From: Bilabrum cf. latius | Lineage: Eukaryota | DNA: 64,000 bases | NCBI GenBank assembly: GCA_965178125.1 | Contig: OZ237738.1 | Location: 62,001-126,000 of the forward strand | Reading direction: 5' to 3' | Shown: piece after piece, positions 35-63,869 of the stretch | Layout: the number at the start of each line of letters is the position of its first letter | Numbering within the stretch: the first letter of the stretch is position 1 | Translations under genes and position numbers: made by a program | Notes under the pieces: model-generated | Database searches by the model: none | Seen by the model: the letters and a program-made list of their open reading frames with translations, nothing else | Told to the model about the DNA's origin: nothing

Positions 35-1291
35 TTACTTGCGTTTTGGCCTGGTCTTTCTCCTCGCGGCCCCCGTCGCGCTAGAGGCACTAGCTGCCCC
101 TCCACCTCGTCCTCGTCCTTGCCGAGTCTGCTCCCCGGTCGCACTCGAGCCTCGACCAGCCTTCCAACTATTCTGCGGCCCTCCATCCCTTGTGTCAAGT
201 TCCTCATTCCCGGCCCCTCGCCCCTCAAGCCGGAAGTGGTTGATCAGCTCCGCCATGCGGCCCGCATTCATCTCGAGCCCCTGCAGCAGGCGCTGGCGGG
301 GTCCACCTCCACCAGTGACCGGCGGGACACTGCTCGGATGCATCGGGTGCGAGGATTTGCTACTACTAGCACTGCGGCTGCTCGGCTGCTCCCCGCTCCC
401 GCTGTCTGCTCCACCTGCCCCTGCCCTGTCACCATTCGCTTCACCCAAACCTGTAGCCTCTTCTACTCCGCCAGCAGACCGCTCCTCCCCATCAGCTCTG
501 ACGTCCGCATCCCCCATTTCTTCCTCCTGTCCTGACCCTCCTTCCTCCTCGAGGTCAAGCCCGCCCAGACCACCGCTCTCGACACCCTCGAGGAGCATGT
601 CAGCCAGCTGGCTGTACACGGTCTCACCCCCGCCTGGAGGAGGAAGAGGACTCGATGGGGACCCGCCCCCGCTACCCCCTGCGCTGCGATCATCCATGCT
701 CCTGGCTCCTGCACTGAGAGGCGCGCTCGTCGGACTCCCCTGCCAGCCCCTGAGCAACCCGCTGCCGCCCGAGTCCCGTCGCACGCCCAGCGAAGTCTGG
801 CCGACTCCAAACATCGCCCGGCGAGAGGCGTGTTGTGCTGATCCAAACGCGCTAGAAACGAACACTCTGCCTGTATCATTACTGCTGCCGCTCATATCCC
901 GCCGCGGCCGCTTGCGGTGCGGCCCCAAAGCCTTTGGCAATGATTCTGCTTCGGTGCCTGGGCCTGCCCAGCCCGAGCTGCGGAGGGCAGTGTAGTCAGC
1001 CACAAGCTCCTAAATACCAGCAAGAGTTTTCTAGAGGTGGTCTGCGGCCGCCTCTCTGTTATTTCCCATGGCCACCAGCCTTTGCGCCTCCTCACGTTTC
1101 AAACGATGATAGTCCGTGAGAACATCCAGCAAGGACTAGGCTTGAGCAGCATTTCTAGGTAGGGCCGATGCATCTTTGGTCAGATCCAATGAGTCCACAA
1201 TCAGCTGCTAACAAGTTCTGTGAAACCCCTACGCATGCAAGAAAGAGTAGCACACCGAAAGCGCATGAAAGGACTGCGCACCTGCTTGCAT
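35..1291 (-). CDS. LisH-domain (NPAT N-terminus-like) protein with low-complexity tail, ~418 aa if TAG=Gln
   Basis: One frame from ATG 1291 to TAA 35-37 with 5 TAGs (1229, 1208, 1136, 1031, 1010). The N-terminus CYSFLHA*GFHRTC*QLIVDS...SLLDVLTDYHRLKREE resembles LisH/NPAT N-termini. Confidence 0.6.
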
Positions 1292-1511
1292 TCTCGCAAG
1301 CAACGCAACGGCCTGCTCTCGTTAGCTGGCAGCAGAATCAATAGGAAAAGGAAAGTTTATGTAATCTCGGACCTGAATGGACCTCACCCTTCGTGCACTT
1401 TGAGGCAAGCAATTCGGCCATCGTCACATGCGTCGAGCAACCAGCGTGGGGCAGCATTGCTTCATACAATAAGCTTGACCGGTAGCTTCGATGTCGCCAA
1501 TCATGAATTGA

Positions 1512-14536: not shown

Positions 14537-14585
14537 CATTCCTAGAAAATAACTTGCCTGAGGCCAAATCACACGCAACACTGTT

Positions 14586-15646: not shown

Positions 15647-15928
15647 GTGTGACTGATGATAGCGAGACAAGAAGTGCTGTCACACTGCTGTGTACAGGCA
15701 GGAACAAGAAGCCAGATTGAGCACTGGCCTGTGCGCTGCAGCTGTGTTTGGTGATGTTTACTTCCCATACTCTCGTAGCTTTTCTTTTCTTTTAACTTAC
15801 TGAGCAAAGCATAGCTCCTGCCATAGAAACTAGTAGTATGATATTTGCTCCGATTTTGGATTTGCTCGTGCCGCGCGCTTGCCGCCCACACTGCATCATC
15901 AGCGCAGAGCAACCTCAGATTTGCAGGA

Positions 15929-17608
15929 ATGCGATCAATCGTTTCCATTTTGGTGGCTCTCGTCGCTTGTCATGCGCTCAGTGTGCAAGGGCGACGAGCA
16001 GCAGGCCAGCAGCACCTTCGCAGCGCTGGCTCTACGTCGTCGACATCGGTCTGCGCCAGCAGCAGGCACCAGAGCGGCAGCAGCTATGTGAAAGACACCA
16101 AGTACAGCTTTGACAAAGTTGACATGTACTCCTGCGACGTGAGCGCATTGGCCGCGAGGAAGCCGGCAGGGGACGACAGGCTCCGCAGAGGCGAGATTCT
16201 GCATTCCGCTCTCGACCAGCCCGACAACGCCTTGTCCACGGATTCGAAGATGGTGTGGCTCCGGGCTGACTGCAAGCTGGCCGTCGATGGAAAGAAAGAT
16301 GGAAATTTGTTCCTCTCGGATAATCCCTAGTGGCAGGCCGACCACTGCGCGCTGGTCTTGACGGATGCATCGTGCAGCACGCAGGGAGACCTGGCCATCA
16401 TCGACACGGATACGGGCAAGTACCTCTGGCGTGTGCATTCCTCTATCTTCACACCCGAGGTGGACACGTTTCTGGTCCAAGGGGACGGCAATGTCGTTCT
16501 CCTTCAGGAAGGCGCGCACATGCTGTGGAGCACCGATACCGGGGGCCACACGGCCGGGTCGGGGCACTTCCACTTCGCGCAATAGGTGCGGGAGGACTTG
16601 CACAGTCTGCACTGCGATGCAGGGGCCCTGCAATCGTCATACCACCAAGTGACCAACGGCGACGTGCTGTCTCCGGGGCAGGTGCTGCGAGCCGGGGCCG
16701 CCTTGAGGGCGGGCGAGGGAGAGGGGGTCGAGCTGCGCATGCAGGGAGACTGCAACCTGGTGGTGTACCGAGAAGGTAAGGACGTGTTTGCAACAAACAC
16801 GAGGGGCAAGGGTACCAAGGGGAAGTGCGCACTCGTCATCACGGGGGACGGCTGCGACACCCAGGGCGACCTGGCCATCGTGGACAGCGCCTCCGGGCAG
16901 TACATCTGGCGGGCGCCTGCCTCGCTGATGGACCCGGTTGCAGACACCCTTCGTCTGTAGGGGGACGGGAATGCCATCCTGTTCCAGCAGGGAGGTGCTA
17001 TCGCGTGGTCCACGGGGTCGGCGGACCTGGATAGTCCTCACGAGGATGCAACCTTCGGCAATGGTCGCAAGACGGCGGCGCTGCAGGCGGCCATCGAAAG
17101 GTGGACTCCTCGCTGCGACCCCAAGGCGCTCGCTAAGCGACCTGCCGCCCGGGGGTACTCTCTGTGGGACAATGAGCTGCTGCCCATGGGGCATTCACTC
17201 TGGAGGGGGGGGTTCAGCAAGGCCTCTCTGACGGTACAGGACGGCTGCGACCTGGTGGAGAAGGCCAAGGACGGAGACGTAAGCTGGAGGACGAGAACCC
17301 GTGGCAAGGCCCAGAAGTGCGCACTCGTCATCACGGGGGAGGAGTGCGACCGCGTGGGAGATCTTGCTCTCGTAGACATGGACAGCGGGGCGTACCTGTG
17401 GAGCGTCAACACGTCCTACATGCGGCCCACAGCCAGGGTAATGAAGCTTGAGGACAACAACTTTCGCCTGATCCAGCAGGCTTCGTTCAAAAATATCTGG
17501 TGGTCGGATGCCCACCAGATGGGCCACCACAATCCGACCTCGAAGGGAAACCCGGATCCCAGCTTCGATGCGGTGTTTAGCTATTTAGGCAAGTCTCAGG
17601 ATGGATAA
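15929..17608 (+). CDS. Secreted bulb-type (B-/GNA-like) lectin with three tandem domains, ~559 aa
   Basis: Signal peptide MRSIVSILVALVACHALS. Motifs FLVQGDGNVVLL, LRMQGDCNLVVY, LRL*GDGNAILF and repeated CALVITG..C...GDLAIVD. TAGs at 16328, 16583, 16958. TAA stop. Confidence 0.85.
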
Positions 17609-18187
17609 GAGGCGTGTTTGTTTGGCGGTCGTGAAAGCACGGGTGGCGTACGGTGGACCGGTCACACAGAACGCTCTAGGCCACGGCGGTCACGACGCGA
17701 ATTCGGGAGATGTTGAAAGCGTCGATAATGCCATCACTGGCAGTGATGACTCACTCGGAGGCGCTGAAGTGCGCTTCGGCAGGTGAGGAGCCGGGGTTGA
17801 TCCGCGGAGATAAACGACAGATGGGCGCTTTCTCACGAAGGAGCGGCCGGGCGGGAGCCATACCGAAAATTGATGTTCTTAATCGGCTCGGGGTATTCTG
17901 GATTGTCACAGTCCTCAGTGCGGTGCCTACAACGTCATGCTCTGCTCGCCCCCGAAAAACAATTGCCTAGATCTACTAGCCTAAGGCTCAGGGCTGCGAC
18001 CCCAACAATGATGTTCGTAAATAATGTAAATCTGACAATTATCATTTGTTTGCGCTGATTTTGAATTGAAATGTAAATGTGGATAGGTGCAGCGCACTGT
18101 TCTCATTAACGCGCCCTGCGCAGTGCGCACTAAGCTCGCTTGCCAAGCAGTCTCGGGATCACCGCAAACTTGAAGTCTATAGCATCA

Positions 18188-19561: not shown

Positions 19562-20464
19562 TCAGCTGCGTCCCCTCCCGCTCTCCTCTGCTGGGCTCAA
19601 GCCAGAGGCCCGCGCCGCTGCCTCTGCCACCGACCTGGCGCTGTCCCGCTCCACACTTACTGGACAGGCGGCAGTGGCAGCCGCCGCCACAATCCGCTGC
19701 ATGGGCCCTTCGCCTTCGCCCTCCCCCTCGCCACGGACCACCGCGCCATCGCTGCTGCCCCCAATCCCCGCCCCGCCTCCAGAGCCCCGGTCCTGGGCCA
19801 AAGCAGCCTCCAGCGCGAGGTCCACCTGCATATCGGCCTCGACCAGCGCACCCGTCTCAGCGTCCAGTGGTCGCTCCGCCGCCTGTCTCTGCTGCTCGAT
19901 GGCCGCCCTCATGCTGGGCTTGAGCAGCTCGTGGGGGCACGCCTGGCTCAACTGCCTGCGCACCGCCGCAGTTGCCTCGGGCATGCCACGCAGCTGCCTC
20001 TCCACACTAGCCAGAAAACTGCCCCACACGTCCCGTCGGAAATACATGTCCGTTTCACTCGCATCTTCTCCCTGGTACTGGACCTGCCTCCCGGCTGCAA
20101 GCCCCTGCTCCTGCTCCTGCTCTTTCTCCTGCTCTTTCCATGCTGTTGAATGGAAGCCCATCAGCACCATGAACAGAGGCAGGTACCACAGACTCAGCAG
20201 GAACACCTTGCGCGCGCTCTCGTCGCTCCTGTCCCTCCAGAAACGGAAGGCCAGCGGCATCAGCAGCGCGCCCAGAGCCGCCCCCTCGATCGCGAACATG
20301 GCCCCCGTCACGCCCGCCCACGTGGTTACCAGAGGCAGGGCGCTCAGCAGCCCAGAGTACCCCAGGATCCGACTCGCCGTCTTGCCCCCCGAGCTGTCCC
20401 CCCTCGAGATCATCTGGTAGCCACCGTTCTCGTAGTCTTGCCTGAACCTCCAAGCGAGCGCGTA

Positions 20465-20502
<38 letters not shown>

Positions 20503-43629: not shown

Positions 43630-46600
43630 TTACATGGTGCTGCCCTCTCCCGTGCTCCAGATGGACGTGAGCCACACCTGCTTGCGCACGCCCGCCGCCC
43701 CCCCTCTCATCTTGAGCTCCCTGCGCTGCTCCTCGAGACTCTTCCCGTCCATCACCTCGGGCCGCCTCGGCAGGTCGAACCGCTGGTGCACGAGCTCCTG
43801 GAAGAAAGAACTCATCTCGCCGGGCTGCATGACCTGGAGCAGCAGCGCGCGCGCGTGCCTCCTCAGGTCCCTCGTCTTGGGCGTCAGCCCCGGGCCCATG
43901 ACCTCGCTCATCTGGCCCCGCAGCAGGAAATCGGCGGCCTCGTGGAAGGACGATGTGCCCGCGAGCAGCTTCTCCACGTTGCGACGCAGGGCCATCCTCT
44001 GCACTGGGTCCCGCAGGGGCAGCTACGGCCTGCCCACGGGCGAGGAACGCAGCATCGTCTGCATCACCATCCCGTCTCCAAAGGGGTGCTCCAGCTGGAC
44101 GTACCAGCCCACAGGCACCACAAGGGTCTCGCCGGGCCGCACGGTGCAGCACGCGAACTAGGCGTACCTGTGGCGCGGGTATCGCCACATGTTGGGGGCG
44201 CGAATGTCCACCTGGGCATACCTGTCCATGGGATGCGCCACGGGGAAAGGGTACATGCGGCCCCAATGGTGCGGCGGTGCCATGATCGCGTGCACGGATC
44301 CCCTTATGCAGGTGAACAGGTGCGAGGACTCGTCGTACTCGATGGGGTGGATCACACCCCTCTGCCCGATGATGAGAGACTGCGAGACCACGCCGCCGAG
44401 GAAGAGCCTTCTCTCGAGCTGCTTGATGAAGGACCAGTCGCACCCGAACAGTTCGTGCAGGCTCTGCTTGCCCATTCCCGTGAAGAGAGTTTGTCTCAGA
44501 CAAAGCTTGCGCTCACCTTCGCCAACCACTGGCTGCCAATCCATCCCCTGCATCGCTGGGGACTCTCGTAGCTTGAGAGACACTTCACCAGCCATGCGGA
44601 TCATCTCGTTGGCAACCACCAGCACGTGACCGGTGGCCTTCTGCCTGGCATCGCTTGCATCCCCCGACCCTGACTCCGATTTGACTTTGTCTCTGCCAGC
44701 ACGTGCATCATACTTGCCCCTCTCTGTTGCCTCTGCTGACTTGGAGCCAGCTCCTGTGGAGGCAGACATCGAAGCGGCCAGCAGCTGCCCGGGCGTCGGC
44801 CCAGCGGATGCTTTCTTTGCCAGTATCTTCTCCTTTTCCTTCTCCTTCTTGGCAGCCTTGGAGCGGCGCCCACGACGGCCTCGTCGCCCTCCAGACGCCA
44901 CCATCTTGGTCGTCTGGGATGGAGCCGTATCCGGCTTGCCTTGGGTGATGGCGCGCCGCTAGGCGGAAGTTCCAATTCCTTGTCCTCCTTTCGTCGCCTG
45001 GAATGCGTCTGTCTCGCTCTCGAGCGTCATGGGTCCGTCGGAAAAGGGTTCCTGCGCTGGCAGCGAGGCCGGCATGGGGCAGTAGTGCACCGACTGCTCC
45101 GCTCGTTCCTTCTGCTCGTCCTGCCAGCGCCTCCAGGTCGGCGCATCGGGGATGCTGCCTGCTTGGGCCAGCGCGGCAGTCGCTCGGCGGTGATCCACTG
45201 CATGCTCCATATCGTCGTTACGATCCCCTGCAGGCTGGCTGCCGGACGAAGTGTCGAACGACTCGGGCGGGATTTCTTGAAACGGGGCTCTAGCGGGAGT
45301 CTCGCGCTTGGTGGCGGATGCGAGCTTTACAAAAAACTCCGCGATGGGCATGTCACAGGGCACCGTACCCGCATCGTGCACATAGCCCACCATGTTGGCA
45401 GCGTGCTGCACGAACACCCGCGGGGAGCCTTCGTACACCCGGAACAGAGACCGGATCCCAGCTGCCTCCGTCAGAGCCGCGGGGCTGGACCAGCGCTCTA
45501 CGAGGGGCTGCATGAAGTTCGTGTCTGTGAGGACGGCAGGGCGGTTATGGAAGATCCATTCGTATGACTGGGTGTCGTAGGCGGACAGCCGTGGCACAGC
45601 CCTCTCGCAGAGTCTGCCGTGCACCGTGTCCCAGTCCATGCCCCGCTCCTCGGTGGGCGCGATGCCGTAGTACTTGCGCCTGGTCAGGGTCTCCTGCAAG
45701 TCGCGGTCCTTCGCAGCATCTGTAGCTCCTTCACCGGCTGCCTTCTCGCCCCTTCCAGGCTCCTTCGACTTCCCAGCGGCATCACCTGCAGACTTTGCTT
45801 CTGCGGCTTTGCTTGTAGAGTCTGCACACACGTCCCCCTAATCAGGCTTATCGGCTCGGCTTGCCTTGCTTTCAGTGCCAGCATTATCAGGGCTCTTGTA
45901 CACTGCGTCCGCGTCTCCTAATGCGGGCAGACGACCCCTGGAGCACTCTGCTTCGAGCAGCATGGATGTGGGCCGGAACACGGGCGCAGACAATCGGTAC
46001 CCGTTGACCTATCGAGTCACCACCATGCCTTGGTCCTTGCCCGTCCACAGGAACATGTCGCTCTCGGGGCCATCGGTGGGCCGAATCAGGCTGCAGTCCT
46101 CGGCCACCCCGCAGGCAAGCCCACGCCTGACCAGGTCCTTGGCGAGAGGAGACCGGCGACGGGCCTCTTGGATGCAGATGAATTGCTCCATGTCCTACCG
46201 GTGCTGCCGCAGCACCGTCGGCACATCCTCTCCGAACCGATGCAGCCGCTGCTCCGCCCAGGCCTCGTCGAGCTAGCCCGGATCTGCAGCAAACGAGAAG
46301 GCGTACCAGGGCAAGTGCAGGGTCTCCGTGGGCAAGAACCCGCTCTGCAGCTTGAGCCTTGAGAGGATCCTAGTCATGCAGTTGTGATGATGCATGAAGA
46401 GCTCTGCTGCCAGTGCCCGTCGAAACTTGCGCTGCAGGTCCGGTGAGATTCCCAGCAAGGAGCCAGGGAGTGGCGAGGTCGGGTCAATCTGAATAGAAGC
46501 CGCACTTACTGCCTGCTTCAAGGACGCGGCCTGTGCTTTGGTCGATTTCACGAGAGCAGTGGAATGAGATGGCTCGGAGGCCCCAGCAGCAGACGGCACG

Positions 46601-49248
46601 GATGCAGCGGCTGACTCGGCGCGGGATGCGCTGGCAGCCAGACCCGACTTGCCTGGACCTGCTCCTGCTCCCGCCTTGTCCCCTTTCGCACTAACCCCCT
46701 CATCGGATGCATCGATTTCACCGCCTTCATCGCTCACCTCTTTCGAACCACCAGCAGCCGCACCCTGGTGCGACTCCGCTGTGTCCTCGGTGGTCAGGAT
46801 CGTGTAGTCGGTGGGCCGGCTGGCCCGTGCCACCAGCCCACGGAAGAGAGAGAGGAAGATGGACCGCACGGGGTACACGGCCTCCAGAGAGTCCAACGGG
46901 TCGTTCCCTTGCTCGCGTTCTTTCTCTCCGCTGCTTGGATCACCCCGAGACGAAACACCAGCGGAATCATGCTGGGGCGCAATGGACGCGGGCCGTGCAT
47001 GGCTGCCGGTCAATCGATCTTGTGCACTTGCAGCAACCCCAGCCTTCTAGCCCCGCAGCGCCTTTGCCCGCATGATAAACAATCGCGTGGCCTTCTAGAT
47101 TCCAGCCGCGTGTTCAACTGCCCTGGGCTCTCCGATCCACGCCATGGCCCGGAAGAGCTCCAGCTGCCAAGGGGCTGCAGGGCCAGTGGGACTGTCTGAG
47201 TCAGCCCCAGAGACTGCGTCAGCAGTGGACGTGTGGCCGCCTTCCTTGTCCGTTGCTGCCTCCACGCTCCTGCTCGCAACCCGCAGCAGATCCGGGAGTG
47301 CCTCAGCATACGCTCGGTGCACCAGCATCGGTCCGAACTCGGCGTCGTACCACGATACCAGCGCGATGGCATGCCTGGCCATGCGAGAGGGAATCGCGTT
47401 GCACCACACCTCCGCAGCCACCCGCAGCCCAACTGGAACCCTGTTCGTCTGCATGAGTCCGGCGTAGACCGCGTCTAGAGCACGCACCAACGGAGAATCT
47501 CGTTTGAGATGGCCAGGCTTCACGTCGATCGCAGTGATGGGCAGCTGCAGCAGCCTCTCTGCAGATACCTCAAGGCAATCGGACTGCCACACAGGCTCAG
47601 GGAGGTTCAGCTCCAGGGCCACGTGGGTCGTGCTGCCACTCGCAGCTCCTCCACCTCCACCGCTAGCCCCTGCCGCGCCCAGCAAGCTCCGCCCCATCGC
47701 TTTGGCGGCGCCTGCCAGGGCCGCGGCTCCTAACTGACTCTTTCCCTTTGACTTCCCCTTGCTCTTGCCCGCTGCAGCAAACTCCTTGCTGAACTGCGCT
47801 GCCGCCGCCAGGTTCTCCTCCCGCTCGATCTCCCGAGAGTCACGCAGCCTCTCTGGGTCCTGGGCGGGGTTCCGAGGGAGCGGAGGCGGGGCTTGCTGCG
47901 GCCCGTAGGCGACCGGAAACCGCCGGAAACCTTCCTACTGCGGGATGCATTTCGGGCATGCGCGCGGCCCTGCCGATGCCCCCTGTCCCTGGCCCTATCC
48001 CTGGCCCGGGGCAGGCATGGTCCTGAGGTAGTGGTCCAGACACATGGCAAAAGTTAGGGCCCGGCCCGCCTCGCAAACCTCTTCGATCGCGGCTGGCAGC
48101 TGAGGGCTCTCTGCTTCCTCTCTGAGCTGGGCCAGAGGGGGCAGGGTGAGGGCAACTGAGCTAGCTGCTGGTGCTGGTGCTGGTGCTGGGGCTGGTGCTG
48201 ATGCTGATTCACCTGGCTGGTGGCTAGACGTGGACGTGGCTGCATCGTCCATGCCAGCCGGGTCCTTCCCTGCCGCTGCAACGTGCGCGATGGTTTGCTG
48301 CGCGACCCTCACTGCGTCCAAGTTCCTCTAGCTCGCTCTGTCGGTCGCGGCTGCCATTGCCTACCGAGCTGCCTCCAGCACTGCCGCCCGGCTGCCCTGG
48401 GAGGCCTCCACGAGCCGCTGCAGGGCCAGTCGGACACCAATGCGCTGGCGAGCACCCTTAGCCCGGGAGGAGTGCCATGCGGCCATGCGCTGCAATAGCC
48501 GAGCCGCGGCACGGGCCAGCGGGTCTGGCTGCACCGGGAGGAACCGCCAACGCAGCACCTCGTTGATCTGAGTGAGCCTCTCGGTGATTTCGTCCGTGCC
48601 AGTCTCTCCCGACGCTATTGATTCAAGAAGTTGGTCCATCCCAGTTATGAGCATCGTAATGTTCTTCACGCACGCCACAAACTGCGGGGTCTGGCACCAT
48701 GGACGAATGCCGTAGTCTATCCTCGCTTCACCGACTGGAATACCAGAGTTGTGCCCGTCTATGCTACCGAACTCCGCCGCACACAGGTGAGGTTTATACA
48801 ATGTTTTAGCGATGCCGCAGCACACCGCTTTCTTGGAGAGCGATAGCAGCTTGCAGGTTTGCTCTGGCACTCCAGGTAGTTTGCACCATTCCATAACAGT
48901 GTCCCGGGCGAGAAGCGAATGTTCAAGCAATCCACTCCAAAGCTCAGTTTCAGCCCAGTAACGGGTAGTCTCTAACTCCATTGCTCCAAATGTTGGCTCG
49001 ATGACCAGCTCGCCTTGTCGTCCAACACTATTGGGCTGCTCAAGGCCTCTTGATAGTAGCAGCCCTGCGATCTGCTCCCCGACCACATGGCAATCGTCAG
49101 AAGAAGTTTCGCATCCAATAACACACTTTGCTACAGTCTGAGCTATGCAAGCTTGCGCAGCGGCGCTGAAGGATGGCTTCCCTCTTTGCTAGTGCAGCGC
49201 ATCGACAATGGCAGTTAGCCCGCTTCTCAAGCCAGATCCAGCTGCCAT
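43630..49248 (-). CDS. Large intronless protein (~1,872 aa) with a C-terminal FIH/HIF1AN-like JmjC domain with degenerate metal ligands
   Basis: One frame from ATG 49248 to TAA 43630 with ~14 TAGs. RPAVLTDTNF, LIIGQRGVIHPIEYDE, MYPFPVAHPMDRYAQVD, TVRPGETLVVPVGWY, QRMALRRNVEKLL. Confidence 0.8.
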
Positions 49249-49521
49249 CAATTATAAACGTGAGCAAAATGTACAATCGAATTTAAGTTAGGAACAGGTA
49301 GCACGCAGACGGTGCACTCAACATTATTGATCCACACGTAGTGTGTGACGAGCGTGTGGGCCGGGCAGGCAGTTTTGGATAGATTCGCGCACCGTTGGCC
49401 TGCAAGGCTACTAAGTTGATTGAAAGTTGTACGGAGACAATGGTACGACAATAGTAGCGGTAGGCACAAAGGTCTTGAGACCGAAAAAGACAGACACACC
49501 GTACAGCAAGGCAGAGCCGGT

Positions 49522-50351: not shown

Positions 50352-50397
<46 letters not shown>

Positions 50398-52543: not shown

Positions 52544-53915
52544 ATGAATTCGTCACGACAAAAGCGAGAACAAGCGCAGCTGGTCAAGGTAAATTAGCTT
52601 ATCTAGGCAGCAGAGCGAAGAAAAGCCGTAAGCAACTTGACTTGGGTCCCGCTCGGTTTTGGATTTTCAGTGGCCTGTATGCTCGGGGTCAGATTTATGC
52701 GCGGTAGATCTGACGTTTTCTGTATTTGCTCTGCAGGCACTGGAATCTGATCGTGCTCGAAGAGACGCGCAGATCAGACTGGCGGAAGAAGAGGCAGATG
52801 CCAGCCGTCAGCAGGCATCGTCGCTCACAGATGAAGCCGAAGGACTTCGACGGGCCATTTTGCGGCATGATGAAGCCGTTGCGCTTGCAGAGCAGCGCGT
52901 GGTAGCTTCGAACAGAGTGAGTTGGTCCCCACGCATGTACGTTGCGTCTGACACATTCTGCCGCAGCGCTCTCCTCGCCCACCCTTTCGACCCAAACGCG
53001 AGTTTGCAGGACAAAATTGCTCTTTAGTAGCAAGCAGATGACGTGCGCGCAGAGATTGACCGGCTGCGGCGCACGTCGGCCACTCGTGAGCAGGAGCATA
53101 CTCGGCAGCAGGCCGTAGCGTAGATCAAGGCGGACTCCCGCGAGCGGGCGCTGCATAGGCAGCTCCTGGATCTCGAGCGGGACGCTGATGACGCAGAGAC
53201 CAGGGTGCTGCACCTGCGCGGGGCCGAGGAGGAGCAATTGCCCGACCTGCGGGACGAGGTGGCCCTGCTTCGGGTCAGCTCTACCACGCTGCAGGCCGCG
53301 CTCGGGGGCCGTCGCAAGCTGCCGGACGGGTCCTTCGGGGGCATGCCTTCGAGCAGGAGCGGCCCCGCGGCTGCTAGAGTGCTGCGGGAGAGGCTGACGG
53401 ACCTGGTGCGGCGGGAGGGCCGGGCCGCCCAGGAGGTGCAGCGCAAGATCGCAGGGGCGCAGTCGGAGAGGCGGAGGCTGGCCAGGGCTGTGGCGGCCAC
53501 CAACGCGCAGGCAGACGAGGCGGCATTCGCGCGGCGAGTGCTGCAGCGGGTGCCACCCTCGGCGGATGCCGTGCGGGAGGCCCTCGCTGATCCGTCGGTC
53601 CGCGGCGACCTGCCAGCCCTGCAGGACCTGCAGCGCGCCATGGCGGTCGCGCGGTCCGAGCCCGAGGACATCAAGGCCCCGGGGTTCGCGGAGCAGGAGC
53701 AGGGGCGGGGGCAGGGGCAGGGGGAAGGGGAGGGGGCGGGCACCAGCGGGGCCTCCATGCTGCAGGCGCTGGCGGCACAGGACCCCGTGGTGGGCGAGGG
53801 CGGGCTGGGGGCTGGTGGCGAGCTGCCAGCGGACATCTCCCGGTTGGTGGTGGGGGCGAGCGACGAGGCAGTGGGCATGATCCGGCGTGCGCTCGCAGGG
53901 GAGGTGGGGGACGAG

Positions 53916-53948
<33 letters not shown>

Positions 53949-56900
53949 AGTCAGTCGAGGGCCAAGCGGGACAGCGGCACGGCGAGTGTGGCATCCATCG
54001 CCAGCAGCGCGAGAGCGAGGGGAGCCCCGCCCCCGCCTCCACCGAGGGCTGTACCCAGGGCACCTGGGAGCAGCGGCGGCAGCGGCTCAGAGCCCCGGGC
54101 GGTGCCTCACCGGGCCAACAAGGCCAAGACTTCGGTCCGCCGTGGGACCTACTTCGGCTCGTTTCCGAGCAAGACCCAGAAGCAGCTTGCCGCGCTGAAG
54201 GTGAAGGGAGCGGCGGGGGAACAGCGTCAGCAGCAGCAAGGTGTCGGTGAGACAGACCAGGCATCTCCCAAATCCAGGGCCGTGCGCGCCAGGCTCAGAA
54301 AGCTCGCCAGGCCGGCCCTCCCTGACGCCGCCTCGTCTCCTCCTCGGGGCAGCCAGCCCCTGCGACAGGGGCCTTTCTCCCCGCTGGTGGTGCCCGAGCC
54401 AGGGGCGGGCAAGAAGAAGGGCCGGGACAAAGGGGCCAAGGGCAGCAAGCGGCGGCCGCCGGCTAGCAGCACACGCGCGCGCAGCACGTCCCCCTCTGCT
54501 CGCCAGCGACTGGACGGCAGCGGGGGCGACTCTTTCTCGGGAGTACAGTCCCGGGTAGCGCGATACATCAACGCGGACGCGGAGTACAGGAGCCAGGAGG
54601 CGCGGCGGGCTACGGGAAACGCCGAGTCGCTGCTAGAGGCGGCCAAGGCGGCCCGGCGGGCGGACCGCGCCCGCCGACTGCGACAGAGCAACCGGTCGCG
54701 CACCTCTAGGAGGAGAGGGACCCACTTCGGGATGTACCCTAAGGCGGGGGCAGGTGCGGGGGATAAACTGGGCGACAGCAAGGGGAAGAGCAAGGCCGGG
54801 TCCAGGACCAATGGTGGGGCCAGCGGGAAGAGGTCAGGCAGCGGCAAGCGACCGAAGGGGTCCTTGAGAGGCAGGGGTGGGCGGGAGAGCGGCGTGAGGG
54901 CTGCTCCCCGGGAGGGCAGGGGTGGCGGTGGCGCAAGGGGTCCCGAGGTGGATCTGAGCGGCAGTGTGACGAGTGTGATCGACCCGTCTCACGGCGTCGG
55001 CCTCCAGTCGATCGCGGAGGAGGACGACGATGACGAGGAGGAGTTGGAGGGGGAGGGCACGTCCAGAGGCACGCGGTCCGATGCGCCGGACTATCGAGAC
55101 GATGCCTCCGTCATGACAGCAGCCACTGCGCCCGCGCTGCCAGCCTCCTCGCACGATGGCCGGGGCCTTGGCTCGTCCACGTCTACATCCGTGGGCGGTG
55201 CGCCTCGCAGAGGCGTGGACCGGTCCTACATGCCGGAGTACTCTGACACGGAGAGCGGCAGCTCGGACATGTCGCCCCCGGGGAGCGTGAGGGGCGGGAG
55301 CAGTGGGCGCGGCAGAGGCAGGGGCAGAGGCAGGGGCAGGGGCAGGGGCAGAGGTAAGGGCAGCAAGGTGTCCTCGTGGCGCAGGGGGACGTACTTCGGG
55401 GCACGGCCTGCCAATGGGCAGGCCCCGAGGACCCCTGAGTCGGGTGTCAGCCCCAGACCGGAGCCGTTCAGGTCTGGTGGCAGCAGCGGCAGAGGCAGCG
55501 GCAGAGTTAGGAGTCGGTCGGCGGGGCGAGGCCAGCAGCAGCGGCAGCAGCCGGAGCGCCGGTGGAACGCCTCGCCTAACCTTCGGTCCCCCCGCCGCGA
55601 GGACTCCGCCAGTCCATCGGCCAGAGCCAGGTCGACCTCGAGGGGGAGGGGGCGGGGGCAGAGCCCGAGGCACTCGGAGTATGACGGGGTGAGGGCGCGC
55701 GTGGATTCGGGCGTGAGGGGACAGGGAGCCGGGCAGCGGCGAGGTGGTGGGCAGCGGGCCGGCGCGGGGTCTCGACTGCTGGTAGATGGGCTGCCGGGAG
55801 ACATGCACGAGGCCGAGCTCGCTGCCCTGTTCCGGCCCTTTGGCACGGTGCAGTCCGTGAGCATCGTGCGGGACGGCATGGGCATGTCTCGCGGGTTCGG
55901 GTACCTGGAGCCAGCGGAGCCGGCGAGCTGCCGCGCCATGGTGCAGGGAGTGCACGGGCGCAGGGCGGGGGGCTCGAGCGGGGCGGTGTTGTCTGTGCGG
56001 GTGGCAGACGGCGCGATGGCGATGGGTTCCAGCGGGAGCGGGAGCGGGGGCGGGGGCCGGCCTGCTGCTCCCGTGCGGGACACGCAGCGCCGCGCGAGGG
56101 CCAGCAAGGACTCTCGCAGGAGAGGGACGCACTTCGGGATGTACTCCCCCGAGGAGGCGGCAGCCAGGGAACAAGCCAGGAAGGGGGGCCGGCGGCAGGC
56201 CCCACGCAGGCAGGGCGCGCGGGATGCCCCCGCTAGCCCTCGGGACCGCACCGACACGGCCCTGGCTCTGCTCGCAGCCCCTGCCAGCTCCCCGGGGGAG
56301 ACGGAGATCGTGCTCAGCCTCGGGGAGCACCAGCACCAGTCGGCAGAGGAAGCCAGCGGCCGGGCTCGCGCACGGAGTTCCTCCACAGGCTCGCAGGACA
56401 GGGACAGGGGCAGCGGCAGCGGCAGGGGCAGGGGGGAGAGGGACCCGAAGGGCAAAGAGCTGGATCGCGCCGCAGTGGCACCACTGGCCCGAGCCGATTC
56501 TGCGTTCTCGGCGGGACTCCGGGGCGGCGCCAGCACCAACACGCGCATGATCACAGCCGTGTCAGAGAAGCAGCTGGGCAGGAGCGCGCAGGCCGCCGTG
56601 GCCACCAGCAGCGGGGCCTCCTCGCCCAGGTCCCACCGCAGCGCAAGCAGCAGCGGCGAGGGCCCCCCCACGGACCGTCCCAAGCCCCAGCGCCGGCTGT
56701 CCAAGCAGCGCCTGGTGCAGCTGGCAGAGCCCAAGTCACCCAGGCAGGGCCGCTCGCCGCTGTCCTCGAGGTCGGCTAGCCCCGAGCCGGGGGAGGGACA
56801 GGGGCGCGGCCACGGGGGCTTGCAGCGGACGGGGAGCAGGTTCAGCTTTGACGCTGCCGACGTGGCGGAGGGCGTGGGTGGGGGCGAGTTCGAGTCGCAG

Positions 56901-57176
56901 GGGCAGCAGGTGGCCCGTTGGAGCGGGGGCCTGCGCGCGGAGGGCGCCCGTCCCCTGCCCTCGCCCTCGGCCAGGGGCGGCAACGGGGTCAGGGCCTCCC
57001 CATCCCCGCGCGGGGGACATGGCAGGTCCCCGCAGGGGGGTGGGGGTGGGGGTTAGTCGCGCGTGGTGGGCAGCAGGCCGGCCCGCACTGTTCCCCAGTC
57101 GTTCCGCACGGCGGGGCACAGCGGCAGAGAGGACTACTTCGGGCTGTACGGGAATGGGAGTGGGGGCCAGCGGTGA
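52544..57176 (+). CDS. Coiled-coil, RG-rich, RRM-containing protein with repeated RRGT[YH]FG motif; likely 3 exons (52544-52588, 52737-52916, 53010-57176)
   Basis: RRM LLVDGLPGDMHEAELAALFRPFGTVQSVSIVRDGMGMSRGFGYLE. GT..AG introns at 52589-52736 and 52917-53009. TAGs 53025, 53028, ~53121, 57054. TGA 57174. Confidence 0.7.
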
Positions 57177-57373: not shown

Positions 57374-58231
57374 TCAGATGGCAGTCCAGCCCCCATCCAC
57401 AGACAGGTGCGTCCCCGTCACGGCACCGCTGCCGGGCCCGCAGAAGAAGCTCACCGCATGCCCGATGTCCTCGGGGGTGGCGAACTCTCGCTGCGGCTGC
57501 TTCTCCGAGAGGAGGTCCACCTTGGCCTCCTCGAAGGAGACGCCCATGCTGTCCGCCCGGGCCTGCACCTGCTTCTCCACCAGGGGGGTGAGCACCCAGC
57601 CGGGGCACACCACGTTGCTCGTCACACCCGTGCCGGCGGCCTCCACACCCACGACCTTGCTGAGTCCCATGACGCCGTGCTTCGACGCCACGTACGCAGA
57701 CTTGTTGGCGGATGCAACGAGACCATGTGCGCTGGCGACATGAATCATTCTGCCCCACCCGCTCTCCTTCATGGCGGGAAGGAAGGCTTGCGTGGTGTAG
57801 AAGACCGCGGAGAGATTGACGGCGATGACTTTCTCGAAGATGTCTTCGGGGAAATCTTCGATAGAACTAACGTGCTGAATGCCAGCATTGTTTACCAAAA
57901 TCGAGGCGGATTTCCCGTCAAAGGCCGCCGATACATCGTCTCGCAGCTGCTCCGCCGACTTGCGGCCACCTGCAAGATCAGCTGTTGAAAGCCCCACTTT
58001 CACGTCATACTTTGCCGCGAAGTCGGTTTTAAGCTTGTCAAGCTCATCCGGTTTTCCGAAGCCGTGCAACATGATATCTGCTCCCTACGAGGCCAGCACC
58101 GAAGCCACTCCTTGCCCGATCCCACTTGTCGATCCGGTCACGACGGCGATGCGCCCCGCCAGTGGACGACCGGCTGCGGCAGCTGCAGTGGATAGGCCTC
58201 GCGACAATTTTCCAGCACTCCTGCGAAACAT
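57374..58231 (-). CDS. bdhA: D-3-hydroxybutyrate dehydrogenase (bacterial-type SDR) with mitochondrial presequence, ~285 aa
   Basis: VVTGSTSGIG..LAS*GADIMLHGFG, NNAGIQH, SAHGLVASANKSAYVASKHG, CPGWVLTPLVEKQ, LLSEKQP, DGGWTA. TAG 58085. TGA stop. Confidence 0.92.
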
Positions 58232-58399
58232 GGTGCGCAACTAATCTGTATCTTTCCACGGATCCGGCTCCTGCACGCGACTCCGAGTACCCCAACACGT
58301 GGCTTCGAAATGGTACCGCGTAAACATTGATTTGATGCGAGCCGCAGGCAGTGCTGTTATCAACAAATATTTTGAGGGTCTGCGCGGCAAACGTATGCA

Positions 58400-58957
58400 A
58401 TGATCCGCGGCACGGGCTAGATCCACACCAAACTCACGCATGCAATCCCGACCCAGCAGCAACGGCTGGAGTTTCCGTACCAGCTTGTGAGACACTCGCC
58501 ATCGTCAAACTTAGAGACCTGTGGGGGATTTGATTTCCGGCGCAGCAGTGTGTGGGGAGCCCGCAGCAAATCGGGGGTCCCCCGACAAGAGAACCAGAAG
58601 GGAAGGTTCGATTCAATCAATTGCCGAATCTTCCGCCCGGGCTAGACCTCTATGTGTCAGCAGCAGCTTTATTCGAAGTATTCACTGGAGGCGGTGCCAG
58701 CGGCCACGCCCGCCCCTTTGAAGCTCGTGCTGCAAGCCTCTGTGGCCCCGGGTTGCCCCCTGCTCTCCTGCCCTCAGCCGCCGCTCGGTACATGCGGTGC
58801 CGGCCCTAGAGCGCACATCGTGATGCTAGCTGCTACGGAAGTTCCGTACCATGCACATGACATACACCCCGCCGGTTTCCGGCCCAGCCGGCAACCTTCA
58901 AGTTGGCAACCACTGGAAGTGACGTGCCCGCTTGCCTAGTCTGGTGCTCCGCGCTGA
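58400..58957 (+). CDS. Possible hypothetical protein (~185 aa, 3 TAGs)
   Basis: ATG-to-TGA frame open only with TAG read-through. It fills the gap divergent from bdhA. No motif recognised. Confidence 0.25.
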
Positions 58958-59792: not shown

Positions 59793-62700
59793 ATGCGAAG
59801 GGGCAAAGCATCGATCCGAAGCAAGCCCTTAGACTTTCATAGACGGCTTCCTGTCATCAGGGAGGCCGCAAAGATAGAAGCAACGCAGCCAGACCCGTCG
59901 GCAGATGCAGCTCAGGTGAGCCTCCAAGCTTGCATGAGCTTTTTCTCACGTGTCGTAGGCTAAGTAGTAACGATGACCGATCAAGTATAAATTTTATGGT
60001 CATATAAACCATGTCCACCTTAAATGCAGGCAAAATTTAAGATAGATCTGCCAATCCCGGAGGTTTCAGAGGTCAAGACCTACGGCGCGGAGGCCAAGGC
60101 CTTCGAGCCGTCCGAGCACTACGTTCGGCACATCCCGGGCTCGCAGCACCAAGCGCGCGCGGGTGCCGAGTATGACATGGACCATGATGATGATGAGTTC
60201 CTCCGCAAGCACCCCCGCTACGGAGAAAACGGAGACCCGAGCACCCGCCTCCAGCCCAGCCTATTCGAAAAGGCCATCACGGTGCTGGAGGAGGAGCAGT
60301 CCAACATCGACGCGGGAGCGGCGGGAAGGGACCACCCGGCCACGAGCCTCGCTACCGGCCTCATGAATTAGAGCAAGGCCGTCCAGCTGCTGGGAGGGTC
60401 CATGAGCCTCCCCGAGCCCACCTGCATCGACCTGCACTCGTACTGGATCGGCAAGCGCACCCAGCGCAAGAAGCCCCTGCTCCGCAGATTCTGGCCCAGG
60501 ACCGCGCTGTCGGACACGAATCCACACAGCGTGTTCCGGCCCCGCGAGCGGGAGGGCTACAAGCTCCGCAGGCAGCGCCGCAACGATCGGGAGGGCCTCG
60601 CCAGCCTGGAGAGGAGGAGGGCAGACCTCGCCGTGGCGCAGCAGATTCTGCAGATGGTGCTGCTGCGAGAGAAGACCAAGCACATGCTCCTCGCGGCAGC
60701 GGACGATGCCTTCTAGCAGGCTCTGCACGAGGCCACGGACACCACTGGTGTGAAGCGCACCCCACTCGTTGTGCAGGGCAAGGCCACCATCCGGGACCAG
60801 CTCATGATGCAGGCATCAAGCGCGCAGGACGACAGGGGGAGGGGGGCGGCGGGGGCCCGCGGCAGGGCACGCAGGCAGCGCTCGGCGCGGCAGAACAAGA
60901 CGATGGAGGCCCTTCGGGAAGCCGTGCTGGAGCTGGGACCCGGGCACGCTGCCGCGGCGGGGGCGGGCTATCCGGGTGCCGCCGCCAAGAGCGCGCAGGC
61001 GGGTGTGGGGCAGCGCAGCGGGCAGGACATGGGGCGGGCCTTCAGGTCTGGCCCCTGGCGGGTGCCGTTCGGGTGCCCCTTGCACGCGGCAGGCGACGGC
61101 AGCGGGAGCGCCGCCGCGCTTGAAGGGCTGGCTGGTCGAGCCACGCGGCAGGCCTCCCGCTTCGGGCCCTCCTCGCTCGAGGACGACGCGGAGGAGGCGC
61201 TGCGGCCGGACTGGCTGGCGCCGACCCTTCCCCTGCGGCCCCCCGTACCCAGGGACCCGGCCGCGCCCTGGGCGCACGCAGGGCAGCTGGCCTCGATCGC
61301 GTTCGCGTCCGGGGCGGCCCCCGCGGTGCTGGGTGCAGACAGGGGGCGACAGCTGCTGCAGCGGGCAGAGGCGCAAGGCCTGGCGCGGCAGCAGGTGGCG
61401 GCGGCGCAGGCTGCGGCGCAGACGCTCGGGACGGGCACCGTGGGCAACGGGCTGGACCAGGGCGTGGGCGCGGGCAGGGGCTCAGCCTCGCAGGGGGACA
61501 CAAGCGGGTCCGCGCTGGCCCGGGCAGACGCGACCGAGGACGAGGACCTGGAGCGTGTCCTGGTGGGCACGGCCGTGATCTCTGCGGCGGCTGCTGCGGT
61601 GGCCTCGCTGGAGAGTCCGCAGGAGCTGGCTCGCTTGCTGACGGACGGCGCGGTGCCGGCGCACATCGGCAGGGGCGCAGGCGCGCTGGACGGGCTGACC
61701 ACGGTGCCGCCCACGGACCGGGGCTCGGACCTGTCGGTGGGCGTGGGCGGGTGCGGCGCGGGAGAACCGGCGGAGGACGCGCTGGGCGTGGCGTGGGCCC
61801 TGGGGCTGCCCGCGGGGCGGTCCATGTCTAGGGAGGTGCTGGAGCGCATGCTGCGGGGACGGTCCAGCGGCGGATTCGCGTCGGGCGCGGAGCAGCTGGT
61901 GGTGAGCGTGCGGAGCATGGTGACGAGGCAGACGATGGGGATGCTGCACGGGGGCTCTGCCTGGGAGCTGGGTGCGGGGCTGGTCCCCGGTGTGGGGTCG
62001 CTGGGGGCGCACGGGGAGGGGTGGGAGCTGCTGGGGCAGCGGCCCTGGTGCTCCGCGCCCCCGCTGCAGCAGGCGCGCACGCGTCCCCTGCAGCGGGACC
62101 CAGAGTACCGCTGGAAGCGCGAGTGGAGCAAGGAGTACCAGGGCGAGGGCACAGGGGGAGCGGGAGCTCGGGCCAGGGGTCCGAGCATCAGGCGCGCGAA
62201 GGGGACAGGGCCAGGGGACGGCAAGGAACAGGAACAGGGACAGGGGGCAGGCGCCTTCTCCGGTGGTCGCCTCGCAGCTGCCGCCCTCACGGGCCGCAAG
62301 CGCAAGCGACCCACAGACCCAAGGCGCAGGTGGGCGGAGCGCAGGCGCCGAGCCGCCGCGGAGGACTCGCTGTACATGCTGCGCCCCCGCATCACGAGAG
62401 ACAAGGTGCTGGCCCTCGACAGGATACCGCTCACGTAGAGGTCCGTTCAGTGGCGCCGGTCCGCTGCCGCCCAGCTGGCGGGCAGGGCGGCCGCCCAGGA
62501 GAGGGTGCGCCGGGAGCGGGTCACGGGCCCGCTGGCCGGGATGGCGCTGGCGGCCGGCGCCGTGGGGGTGCCGATGCCCAGGTCGGGGTCGTTTGCGCGC
62601 GCCGTGCTGCGGGGACAGGGGCAGGTGGCGGACGAGGGCGCCGTGGACGGGAGGGGCCACGGGGTCGCGTACGGGCCCCGCGTGGGACTGGGGCAGGCCG

Positions 62701-63869
62701 TGCTCTCCGAGACGCATGCCGTGCACGCAGCTGCCTTCCCCGGGGGCGCCCCCGTGCGCCTGGCCACCGGTGACGCGCTCGGGCTGGGCGAGGAGGCCAG
62801 GGGCTCGGCTGCCGCGGTGGCTCCCGGGGGGTTGTTCACCGGGTTCCACCGCCGGAGCGCGCCGAAAGGGGCGGCGCACGCGCGGCGCAAGGGGGACATG
62901 GTGCACGGGAGCGCGCCCCTCGGGTGGATGGCTCGGTGGTCGGACGGGTCGGGCGACCCCGACCTGGCGGACAGGGGCGTGGTGGGCCGCGCGTCTGCGC
63001 CCGTGCGCAGCGCGGTGATGGCTGACTCGGCCTTTGCGAGGATCGGAGGGGGGGCGGGGGCCAACGGTGCCGCGCCCCGAGCCGCTGTCGGCGGTGAGGC
63101 GGCAAGCGGGGCCGCTGGGTCTTCGTCTTCTTCTTCCTCCTCGTCGTCGTCGTCGTCGTCTGCTTTTTCGTCCAGGGCGGGCGGACATTCGGTGGGCGGC
63201 GCCGGCGCCGGCGTGCACCCGGACGACACGCAGGTGGTGGATCCAGCGGGGTCTCGAGCGGCGGGGGACGCTCTGGGCTGGGTGCGGGCGGTGGGGCGGC
63301 GGGCGGAGGCTGCGAGCGGGCTGGGGCGGGGGAGCGGGGCGCTGCTTCCGGCCGAGCAGCGGGCGCAGGGGCTGCTGGGCGGGCTGCAGGGGTCGCACAC
63401 GGGCCTCATGAAGCAGCGCGCGGCCTTTGTGTCGTCCACCGGGGGGCCCGTGGGGGTGGTGAGCGGGTCTGCGAGCAGCGGGCAGTCGGCCAGCGGTGCC
63501 TCCGCGAGCAGCGGACAGGGGCTGCCGCTGGGCTCTCTGGCGGCAGCTCACGCGTCCAGCGCTCGCGTGGACGAGACGTACGCCCTGGAGGACTCTGATG
63601 ACGAAAACCTGCTGCTGTCCGCGCACGCCGCCACGGCCGACTGCCGGACGGGCTACGACGGGACGGACGAGACTCCTTCCGCGCCGCTGGGGTCGAGGGA
63701 GAGGTGGGCCGCCAGCATGGTGGAGGGTGGCAGCAAGGGGGTCGGGGCGCTGCAGGCGGCCGACCGCACCGGCTGGCTGAGCACCGCCGGGTTCCACCCC
63801 CAGGCCGGCCGGGACTCGGCGGCTTTCCTCTTCCACCAGCAGTCTCTCGTGGACCAAAAGCTGCTTTGA
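59793..63869 (+). CDS. EPL1: Enhancer of polycomb-like protein (NuA4 subunit), 2 exons (59793-59915, 60030-63869)
   Basis: IRSKPLDFHRRLPVIR, LPIPEV, EYDMDHDDDEFL, YWIGKR..KKPLLRRFWP..DTNPHSVFRPRE..LRRQRRND. Intron 59916-60029. TAGs 60369, 60714, 62436. TGA stop. Confidence 0.88.

Follow-up and report, generated by a model that had tools for sequence, protein, structure and literature searches.

In the organism from which this nuclear contig derives, UAG is read as an ordinary glutamine codon while UGA serves as the main terminator and UAA as a minor one, a reading that is given a probability of about 0.9. The strongest evidence is a relative in which TAG and CAG occupy reciprocal sites, together with spliced transcripts that keep UAG. 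The first-pass annotation of this DNA had already proposed that UAG encodes glutamine, and this interpretation is supported by the reading frames, by mRNA, by the reciprocal sites of the relative and by the glutamine sites of distant homologues and motifs.

Reading frames that contain TAG

The window, which is the whole 64-kb stretch of DNA that was analysed, has a GC content of 62% and introns of the GT..AG type (Table 1). Its 19 stop-to-stop ORFs hold 92 TAGs in frame after the first ATG among 17,672 codons, and correction for exons gives a total of approximately 96 TAGs, spread over 17 genes and both strands: one of the 92 falls in an IFT81 intron, three are added by IFT81 exon 2 and two by the two-exon gene at 21605-22727. 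The earlier count had been 90-95 in 18 genes, likewise on both strands, and the five sites that it cited, at 34994 (AP beta), 32804 (Top2), 25082 and 23915 (IFT81) and 58085 (HBDH), all hold. Alongside the 627 CAG and 137 CAA codons of the ORFs, UAG makes up about one ninth of glutamine codons.

Given that the ORFs were delimited by reading through TAG, their terminal codons (15 TGA and 4 TAA) and the absence of internal TGA and TAA are set by construction. Read-through of TAG yields eight ORFs of at least 1000 amino acids versus one without it, read-through of TAA leaves one and read-through of TGA gives three; as a control, ORF length by itself is weak, because reading through TGA lengthens ORFs too. 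Since the absence of internal TGA and TAA follows from the delimitation, an independent test of continuity is provided by Pfam matches that cross TAGs, with TAG scored as X. The PCRF match (residues 72-268) runs over five TAGs, and single matches to Adaptin_N, TOPRIM_C, DNA_topoisoIV, adh_short and Cupin_8 cross one TAG each, in keeping with the first-pass observation that the TAGs come without frameshifts and that motifs run on beyond them. Long, domain-complete ORFs are thus restored once TAG is read through.

Table 1. Genes and ORFs of the window, with in-frame TAGs and terminal codons
Position	Strand	Feature	In-frame TAGs	Terminal codon	Remarks
35..1321	-	ORF, family not recognised	5	TAA	GC3 0.61, falling to 0.36 past the TAA
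2962..11829	+	2955-aa ORF, large Cys-rich membrane protein	22	TGA	search for relatives gave no match
15842..17608	+	bulb-type lectin repeat protein	3		
18134..19432	+	mitochondrial release factor 1 (mtRF1; PCRF + RF-1)	6	TGA	
19562..21529	-	COX10 (haem O synthase, UbiA family)	3, in N-terminal part	TGA	
21605..22727	+	two-exon gene	2, in spliced frame		intron about 21886-22080, GT..AG
22874..25280	-	IFT81, three exons	5 exonic (25082, 25028, 24884, 23915, 23747)	TGA	introns 24476-24661 and about 25107-25203
25272..28667	+	1131-aa ORF	4	TAA	
28775..33196	-	type II DNA topoisomerase (Top2)	3, after first ATG		
33197..34348	-	queuosine salvage protein	0		
34676..37243	+	AP-4-type beta adaptin	3 (34994, 37118, 37202)	TGA	intron about 34670-34766
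37461..42038	-	1525-aa IQ-motif protein	11		
42294..43481	+	395-aa ORF	3		
43630..49251	-	1873-aa protein, C-terminal Cupin_8	14	TAA	
49522..52593	-	1023-aa ORF	3		
52641..57176	+	1511-aa RRM protein	4		
57374..58504	-	3-hydroxybutyrate dehydrogenase (HBDH, SDR)	2		58085-58087 within Rossmann fold
60024..63869	+	EPL1 (enhancer of polycomb-like)	3		

The residue encoded by TAG

The loci L014/L015, both from one metagenome and with a GC content of 0.53-0.56, share the window's gene order for Q_salvage, AP-4 beta and the IQ protein, at amino-acid identities of 64%, 83%/67% and 47.5% respectively. This environmental relative has in-frame TAGs of its own, and its three ORFs terminate at TGA, TAA and TGA. 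When TAG sites are aligned in either direction between the window and the relative, nine of 13 lie opposite glutamine codons (eight CAG, one CAA) and the remaining four opposite T, I, E and H, a result with a binomial tail of 6e-9 at a glutamine background of 6%. Each of the three TAGs of the L014 Q_salvage orthologue faces CAG or CAA in the window. No TAG position is common to both species among the 13 aligned, so TAG and CAG appear to be freely interchangeable synonymous codons. The reassignment predates the split of the window's species from the environmental relative.

Family consensus had been claimed in the first-pass annotation to place glutamine at its cited sites, and this is borne out in Top2, where the TAG at 32804-32806 is in the 'YQ' preceding the ATPase domain and Q is found in three of three solved chains, and at TLQKD of AP beta (site 107), where Q is found in 65 and L in 37 of 120 homologues and the nearest six checked are all Q. 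The claim fails at SR*QGA of IFT81, opposite which Chlamydomonas has R, and it is upheld only in part at two further sites: KSP*ELLQ of IFT81 is Q in Chlamydomonas but the column of 150 homologues has L 32, F 24, E 11 and Q only 10, and at LAS*GAD of HBDH one enzyme has Q but two others A. Across IFT81 exon 2, Chlamydomonas has Q at two of the three TAG sites and the fragments P0280 and P0262 (identities of 71% and 90%) show Q, K and Q there in turn, while the exon 3 sites are variable columns (R, E, K). Within repeated motifs, the TAG at 16958-16960 stands at the Q position in the third Q-x-D-x-N repeat of the lectin, the other two repeats having CAA and CAG, and the TAG at 40605-40607 does so in an IQ-like motif, for which three others with full context have CAG or CAA.

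Some columns raise the possibility that UAG is a sense codon for a different residue, be it Glu, its meaning in peritrichs and Blastocrithidia, Leu, its meaning in the rhizarian exLh, or else Lys, Ser or Tyr. At the six TAG sites of mtRF1 compared with 120 mostly alphaproteobacterial RF1s, Q is not favoured: site 98 is acidic in 114 of the 120 (E 82, D 32) and others have R, K, N or A, columns that are uninformative or point to E/D. Site 838 of Top2, in a variable column, has E; at IFT81 site 26 the close fragment P0280 and 40 of 150 homologues have K; and L is the residue of those 37 homologues at AP beta site 107. Nevertheless, a residue other than glutamine is highly improbable for three reasons: first, the close-relative test gives nine Gln of 13 against one E and no L or K. 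Second, the nearest AP beta homologues and the Top2 chains agree on Q, and TAG stands where the IQ and lectin motifs have Q. Third, CAG to TAG is one transition, and eight of the nine partner codons are CAG.

Gene ends and the remaining stop codons

Having taken UAG as glutamine within genes, it might still be asked whether the code is ambiguous, with UAG also acting as a stop for some genes towards their 3' end, the situation in Condylostoma or karyorelict ciliates. The gene ends number only 19 and belong to ORFs defined by TAG read-through, so that rare termination at UAG could still occur, and the AP beta of the relative has two TAGs in its last five codons. However, no ORF among the 19 requires a terminal TAG, and if TAG made up a quarter of gene ends the probability of finding none in 19 would be 0.004. 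Furthermore, AP beta and its relative share a C-terminal position only when the late TAGs are read through: an ungapped comparison of the C-termini adds one further pair of relative TAG and window CAG, and both ORFs then end alike. The Pfam match to the beta-appendage has reached only profile position 96 of 112 where it breaks off at residue 837, and the residues beyond the TAG at 843 are therefore still required. An ambiguous code is accordingly about as improbable as a different residue.

Lower again in probability is a code in which UAG and UAA both encode glutamine (table 6, the code of Amoeboaphelidium, hexamitids and some green algae), with UAA rare on account of the high GC content. UAR-to-Gln is described as the commonest nuclear variant (PMC5304391), and codons ending in A or T are indeed avoided here, as the ratio of CAA to CAG indicates. 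From that same ratio, though, approximately 20 in-frame TAAs are expected and none is seen (Poisson 2e-9), a zero due in part to the method, in which each TAA ended an ORF. Independent support for TAA as a stop comes from the fall in GC3 past each of the four terminal TAAs, by 0.02 to 0.25, the smallest drop resting on a 3-codon extension; the extensions past these TAAs are short or non-coding. Reading through TAA alone lengthens no ORF, and the TAAs upstream of EPL1 are intronic, lying in an intron that sets off an upstream exon. TAA is not a sense codon here.

Independent contigs and spliced transcripts

A single DNA contig from run X1 spans 18000-37900 with no differences from the window, and contigs from three more studies (X5, X7 and X6) have no differing letters, which answers the concern that the T calls might be base-calling errors. 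In two of these studies (X5 and X7) the contigs are gene-sized and contain GT..AG joints that are absent from the X1 DNA contig, at 21885>22081, 24475>24662, 25106>25204 and 34669>34767; both are assembled contigs whose RNA nature is inferred from the spliced joints only. Of the 24 TAG sites in 18000-37900, X5 covers 22 and X7 covers 15 (in the pieces listed), all unchanged, no splice joint removes a TAG site, and the six TAGs of mtRF1 lie within one unspliced transcript contig. The TAGs are thus retained in mRNA, as the first-pass interpretation entails. An artefact, whether from assembly or base-call errors, pseudogenes, UAG-to-CAG RNA editing or unrecognised introns, is the least probable explanation of all, and nothing was found in its favour: where regions are unconserved, a few TAGs among the roughly 96 could be intronic or untranslated, as the one in the IFT81 ORF proved to be intronic, but the same sequence recurs in contigs of four studies, TAG is kept in the spliced contigs with the mapped introns elsewhere, domains are uninterrupted across TAG and a second species has in-frame TAGs at other positions.

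Decoding of UAG

By analogy with other stop-codon reassignments, UAG would be decoded by a tRNA-Gln whose CUA anticodon differs by one base from that of tRNA-Gln(CUG), and eRF1 would no longer recognise UAG while still recognising UAA and UGA. Scanning of the 64-kb window and of 13 related loci found no tRNA genes. The gene reported earlier as RF1 does encode a release factor, with PCRF and RF-1 domains, but of the mitochondrial, bacterial type and not eRF1, and hence gives no information on the mechanism of reassignment; the window contains no eRF1 gene.

Comparison with known code variants

The codon table is that of Iotanema spirale (NCBI table 15), a fornicate for which Panek et al. 2017 (PMC5304391) report that UAG alone is reassigned to Gln and that UAA and UGA stay terminators; UAA is given there as the predominant terminator, whereas in the window it is TGA (15/19). 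Among the genes of the window are those for COX10, for a complex I assembly factor and for mtRF1, indicating that the organism has respiring mitochondria. Iotanema is an anaerobe from an unrelated supergroup.

Further reports of UAG alone being reassigned to Gln, with UAA still a stop as here, concern Protocruzia tuzeti and two cases among phyllopharyngean ciliates, and the change is described as having arisen repeatedly and recently (PMC11687900). Iotanema and the phyllopharyngeans, named as precedents in the first-pass annotation, are both valid, but the list was too narrow in that Protocruzia tuzeti belongs on it (PMC11687900). The AP beta tree does not group the window with the alveolate Vitrella. 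Moreover, ciliate macronuclear DNA is gene-sized or AT-rich, unlike this 64-kb, 62% GC stretch with its GT..AG introns.

The table 6 code has been reported in Amoeboaphelidium protococcarum, hexamitids, oxymonads, Dasycladales and other ulvophytes; it resembles the present case in that Gln takes over a stop codon, presumably via a mutated tRNA-Gln anticodon, and differs in that TAA is a terminator in the window. The best 120 AP beta matches include no fungal or opisthokont proteins, which argues against an aphelid. In the rhizarian exLh and in Scotinosphaera, where UAG is reported as Leu and Ser respectively, the meanings of UAG and UAA are likewise uncoupled in a non-ciliate nuclear genome, but the residue differs, neither Leu nor Ser appearing at any of the 13 reciprocal sites against nine for Gln.

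Placement of the organism

In a FastTree analysis of AP-4 beta only (121 rows, most of them without names), the query and P0121 fall in an unnamed 15-row clade on the same side of a split marked 100* as all 19 oomycetes, with plants, Rhodelphis, chlorarachniophytes, Vitrella and Ploeotia on the opposite side. This one tree hints at an oomycete-side placement; the first-pass description 'stramenopile-like' has this single tree of mostly unnamed rows as its support. The literature searched gave no case of UAG to Gln among stramenopiles or among other aerobic flagellates of high GC content, and the window probably represents a new, independent occurrence of a rare but already known code variant. 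The fuller proposition, of a separate and previously undescribed origin within an aerobic, flagellated, GC-rich, stramenopile-side lineage comprising at least two divergent species, has slightly better than even odds. If so, the stramenopile-side supergroup would have its first nuclear code change, the code, being common to at least two divergent species, would serve as a clade marker, and a sequenced system would be at hand in which to study how eRF1 separates UAG from UAA. The public RNA and DNA runs suggest that the organism can be sampled repeatedly.

UAG as a probable glutamine codon

TAG is read in this genome, with a probability of about 0.9, as a sense codon for glutamine, while TAA and TGA are kept as stops; the proposal of the first-pass annotation that TAG encodes glutamine is upheld by reciprocal sites in a relative, by spliced contigs and by conserved alignment columns. 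Under the standard code a single frame of the window is open for at least 1000 codons, and when TAG is read through there are eight, the longest of 2955 codons; given that reading through TGA likewise lengthens the ORFs of the window, ORF length discriminates poorly in such GC-rich sequence. The stronger argument is that individual Pfam domain matches, with TAG scored as X, continue straight across TAGs, five of which are crossed by the PCRF match (residues 72-268) of the mitochondrial release factor (mtRF1). Counted after the first ATG, 19 stop-to-stop ORFs (17,672 codons) contain 92 TAG, 627 CAG and 137 CAA. One of these TAGs is intronic (IFT81), and a further three in IFT81 exon 2 and two in a two-exon gene at 21605-22727 bring the corrected total to about 96 in 17 genes, in line with the 90-95 in 18 genes first estimated from the sequence; the five TAG coordinates quoted with that estimate are all correct.

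The ORFs end at TGA (15/19) or TAA (4/19). Past all four TAA ends third-position G+C drops, and what follows is a short extension or one that looks non-coding. Beside the 92 TAGs there is no in-frame TAA, against approximately 20 expected from the CAA:CAG ratio (Poisson 2e-9), although the delimitation of ORFs at each TAA accounts for part of this absence; upstream of EPL1, the TAAs occur inside an intron that sets off an earlier EPL1 exon. The code is therefore most probably one in which TAG is Gln and TAA and TGA are stops, which is NCBI table 15, a table wrongly attributed to Blepharisma and truly that of Iotanema, as stated by Panek et al. (PMC5304391).

Reciprocal TAG sites in a relative

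A metagenome scan with the adaptin (AP-4-type beta adaptin, AP beta) as query identified two loci of an environmental relative, L014 and L015, from one metagenome (53-56% G+C), in which the gene order is that of the window at 33197-42038: queuosine salvage protein, AP beta and a 1525-aa IQ protein, with amino-acid identities to the window of 64%, 83%/67% and 47.5% respectively. The relative has in-frame TAGs of its own, at positions other than those of the window. Taking both directions together, a glutamine codon lies opposite TAG at 9 of 13 aligned sites (8 CAG, 1 CAA; binomial tail 6e-9 for a Gln background of 6%), and the remaining four, opposite T, I, E and H, have poorly conserved surroundings; aligned without gaps, the adaptin C-termini contribute another pair of relative TAG and window CAG. 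At none of the 13 positions do both species have TAG, which is what free CAG-to-TAG turnover of synonymous codons would give, and this turnover seems to be fast. Once TAG is read through, the adaptin ORFs of window and relative end at the same place, and the three ORFs of the relative end with TGA, TAA and TGA. At the exon-2 TAG sites of IFT81, three in number, two short fragmentary database sequences of close relatives (identity 71% and 90%) have Q, K and Q. P0121, a public prediction of the relative's adaptin (L015 1-1317), stops at ...EVSDEVRD, just one codon short of the in-frame TAG of the relative: translation with the standard code has cut off the public gene calls of the clade at TAG.

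None of the other 39 of the 41 metagenome loci (at most 59% identity) has an in-frame TAG in adaptin, which for a single gene is no proof of a standard code. Loci L037 and L038, whose ORFs grow with TAG read-through, were rejected as evidence, as they are rich in introns and repeats and their single TAG is apparently intronic. Locus L032 (1409 bases, 25% G+C), an AT-rich metagenome contig, carries an adaptin homologue with two in-frame TAAs, both opposite Lys of the query, and may come from an organism, possibly a ciliate, that reads UAA as sense.

Accuracy of the DNA and retention of UAG in probable transcripts

Two alternatives were named with the first-pass proposal as refuting it: that the T calls of the TAGs are errors, or that the mRNAs carry CAG or splice out these positions. 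Part of 28000-37500 is contained in 15 public runs (9 studies), four of which were compared with the window over 18000-37900. In none of the four is there a differing letter; a DNA contig of run X1, which may be the window's own source, covers the whole interval without a difference. The error explanation fails on these assembled contigs. Runs X5 and X7, from two further studies, yielded gene-sized contigs with joints at 21885>22081, 24475>24662, 25106>25204 and 34669>34767, whose ends are GT..AG, or CT..AC in minus-strand genes, and which are missing from the X1 DNA contig. With the splice joints as basis, in runs labelled just 'RNA?', we infer that these contigs are spliced transcripts. Within 18000-37900 their pieces cover 22 of 24 TAG sites (X5) and 15 of 24 (X7), and no TAG site is removed by the mapped introns. 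UAG is thus kept in the X5 and X7 assembled contigs, and the second alternative fails at contig level.

UAG is in frame, retained in mRNA and interchangeable with CAG and CAA between species. By analogy with established reassignments elsewhere, a tRNA-Gln(CUA), one anticodon change from tRNA-Gln(CUG), would be expected, together with an eRF1 that would be blind to UAG yet still recognise UAA and UGA. A tRNA scan found no tRNA genes in the window or in 13 related loci, and the window does not encode eRF1. The release factor initially listed as RF1 is irrelevant to the nuclear code because it is a mitochondrial factor.

Residues opposite TAG in distant homologues

To judge from these alignments, distant homologues agree with Gln where the column is conserved. 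Of 120 homologues aligned to the adaptin TAG at 34994, 65 have Q and 37 have L, and the six nearest that were checked all have Q. At the topoisomerase (Top2) TAG (32804), Q is present in the yeast enzyme and in both human ones, alpha and beta. Two repeated motifs, which we take to be IQ and the lectin Q-x-D-x-N, offer comparisons within the window: in one IQ-like motif TAG stands at the Q position, which in three others with full context is CAG or CAA, and in the third lectin repeat it stands at the Q position that is CAA and CAG in the remaining two. Two of the three IFT81 exon-2 TAGs are opposite Q in Chlamydomonas, and all three columns are variable among 150 representative homologues, in which the KSP*ELLQ column holds L 32, F 24, E 11 and Q 10. 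The IFT81 exon-3 sites are opposite R, E and K, Top2 site 838 is opposite E, and the site in the 3-hydroxybutyrate dehydrogenase (HBDH) matches Q of a single enzyme and A of two others. The family consensus for Gln cited in the first-pass annotation consequently stands for Top2 and adaptin, holds in part for IFT81 and HBDH, and does not hold at SR*QGA. In mtRF1, among the best 120 RF1 matches (mostly alphaproteobacterial), all six TAG columns vary, with E/D in 114 of the 120 at one of them; these columns are unhelpful for naming the residue.

Placement of the organism and precedents

The best named adaptin matches are oomycetes (40-45% identity), and still nearer matches are environmental or transcriptome proteins; cluster membership attached an organism name to one of these homologues, P0143 (Ploeotia vitrea). 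In a FastTree of 121 adaptins, a single-gene tree in which most rows are unnamed, the query and P0121 (the 84% relative) fall in a 15-row clade without named members, and a split labelled 100* places this clade on the side with all 19 oomycetes, opposite plants, Rhodelphis, chlorarachniophytes, Vitrella and Ploeotia. This topology is compatible with a stramenopile. COX10, CIA30 and mtRF1 point to a respiring mitochondrion and IFT81 to a flagellum, and the adaptin matches include no fungal proteins, all of which argues against either Iotanema or the aphelid Amoeboaphelidium, for which TAG and TAA are moreover both reported as Gln.

Changes of the nuclear code are rare, and a split in meaning between UAG and UAA is rarer still. 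PMC11687900 reports the split in a handful of cases only, namely Iotanema, the rhizarian exLh, Scotinosphaera, Protocruzia, some phyllopharyngeans and one uncultured ciliate. According to that paper and PMC5304391, UAG alone became Gln in Iotanema, in two lineages of phyllopharyngeans and in Protocruzia tuzeti; UAG became Leu in the rhizarian exLh and some ciliates, and Ser in Scotinosphaera. In the literature covered, outside which most subscription journals fall, no stramenopile and no other aerobic flagellate of high GC was found reported to read UAG as Gln. The codon table is already known and the lineage appears to be new; the origin of the window's code is probably new, and the balance tips slightly towards an undescribed, independent origin of UAG as Gln that marks a clade. 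If true, the change is carried by a clade and not by a single odd species, an unrelated lineage provides an independent replicate of how eRF1 loses UAG and keeps UAA, and it can be tested whether UAG capture is favoured where the genome is rich in GC and TGA is the main stop. Until table 15 is used, annotation, orthology and phylogenomic pipelines will mis-handle the genomes of this clade.

Gene content of the window

The window (62% G+C) carries eukaryotic genes on both strands.

Genes and domains identified in the window
Feature	Position	Strand	Basis and remarks
CIA30, first copy	1658-2635	same as second copy	Pfam
Protein of 2955 aa	2962-11829	+	FG-GAP-like and Cys-rich regions, multi-pass membrane part
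CIA30, second copy	14537-15529	same as first copy	Pfam
Type II topoisomerase (Top2)	28775-33196	-	Pfam
Queuosine salvage protein	33197-34348	-	Pfam
Beta adaptin, AP-4 type			Pfam; appendage represented by C-terminal sub-domain only
IFT81			Identity confirmed against IFT81 chains of known structure
Mitochondrial-type release factor			Pfam; PCRF and RF-1
COX10			Pfam; UbiA family
Short-chain dehydrogenase			Pfam and comparison; closest to 3-hydroxybutyrate dehydrogenases
EPL1			Pfam
Bulb-type lectin			Pfam
Cupin_8 protein			Pfam
RRM protein			Pfam

Shorter database proteins yielded no relative of the 2955-aa protein at E 1e-5 or better, so that its 22 TAGs have no alignment columns. The CIA30 copies are nearly identical, lie approximately 13 kb apart and have no TAG after the first ATG; the pair is a recent segmental duplication. 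Top2 has a basic N-terminal extension ahead of the conserved YQ motif and stops shortly past its DNA_topoisoIV domain, so that a long C-terminal tail is lacking, and may be of an organelle-targeted type. The queuosine salvage gene lies between Top2 and the adaptin. Queuosine in tRNA-Tyr influences UAG read-through; the window holds no evidence of a link to the reassignment. Summed contig depth rises 20- to 50-fold at 19992-20655 in all four runs, and many short pieces of other contigs align at approximately 20100-20140; the rise is a simple repeat in the Glu/Gly/Gln-rich C-terminal tail of COX10 and does not reflect copy number. Over 59650-60023, an EPL1 exon whose translation includes SKPLDFHRRLPVIRE precedes the main ORF, with an intron holding three TAAs between the two; in the main ORF the Pfam EPL1 match begins at profile position 89, which fits the absence of the first half from the main ORF.
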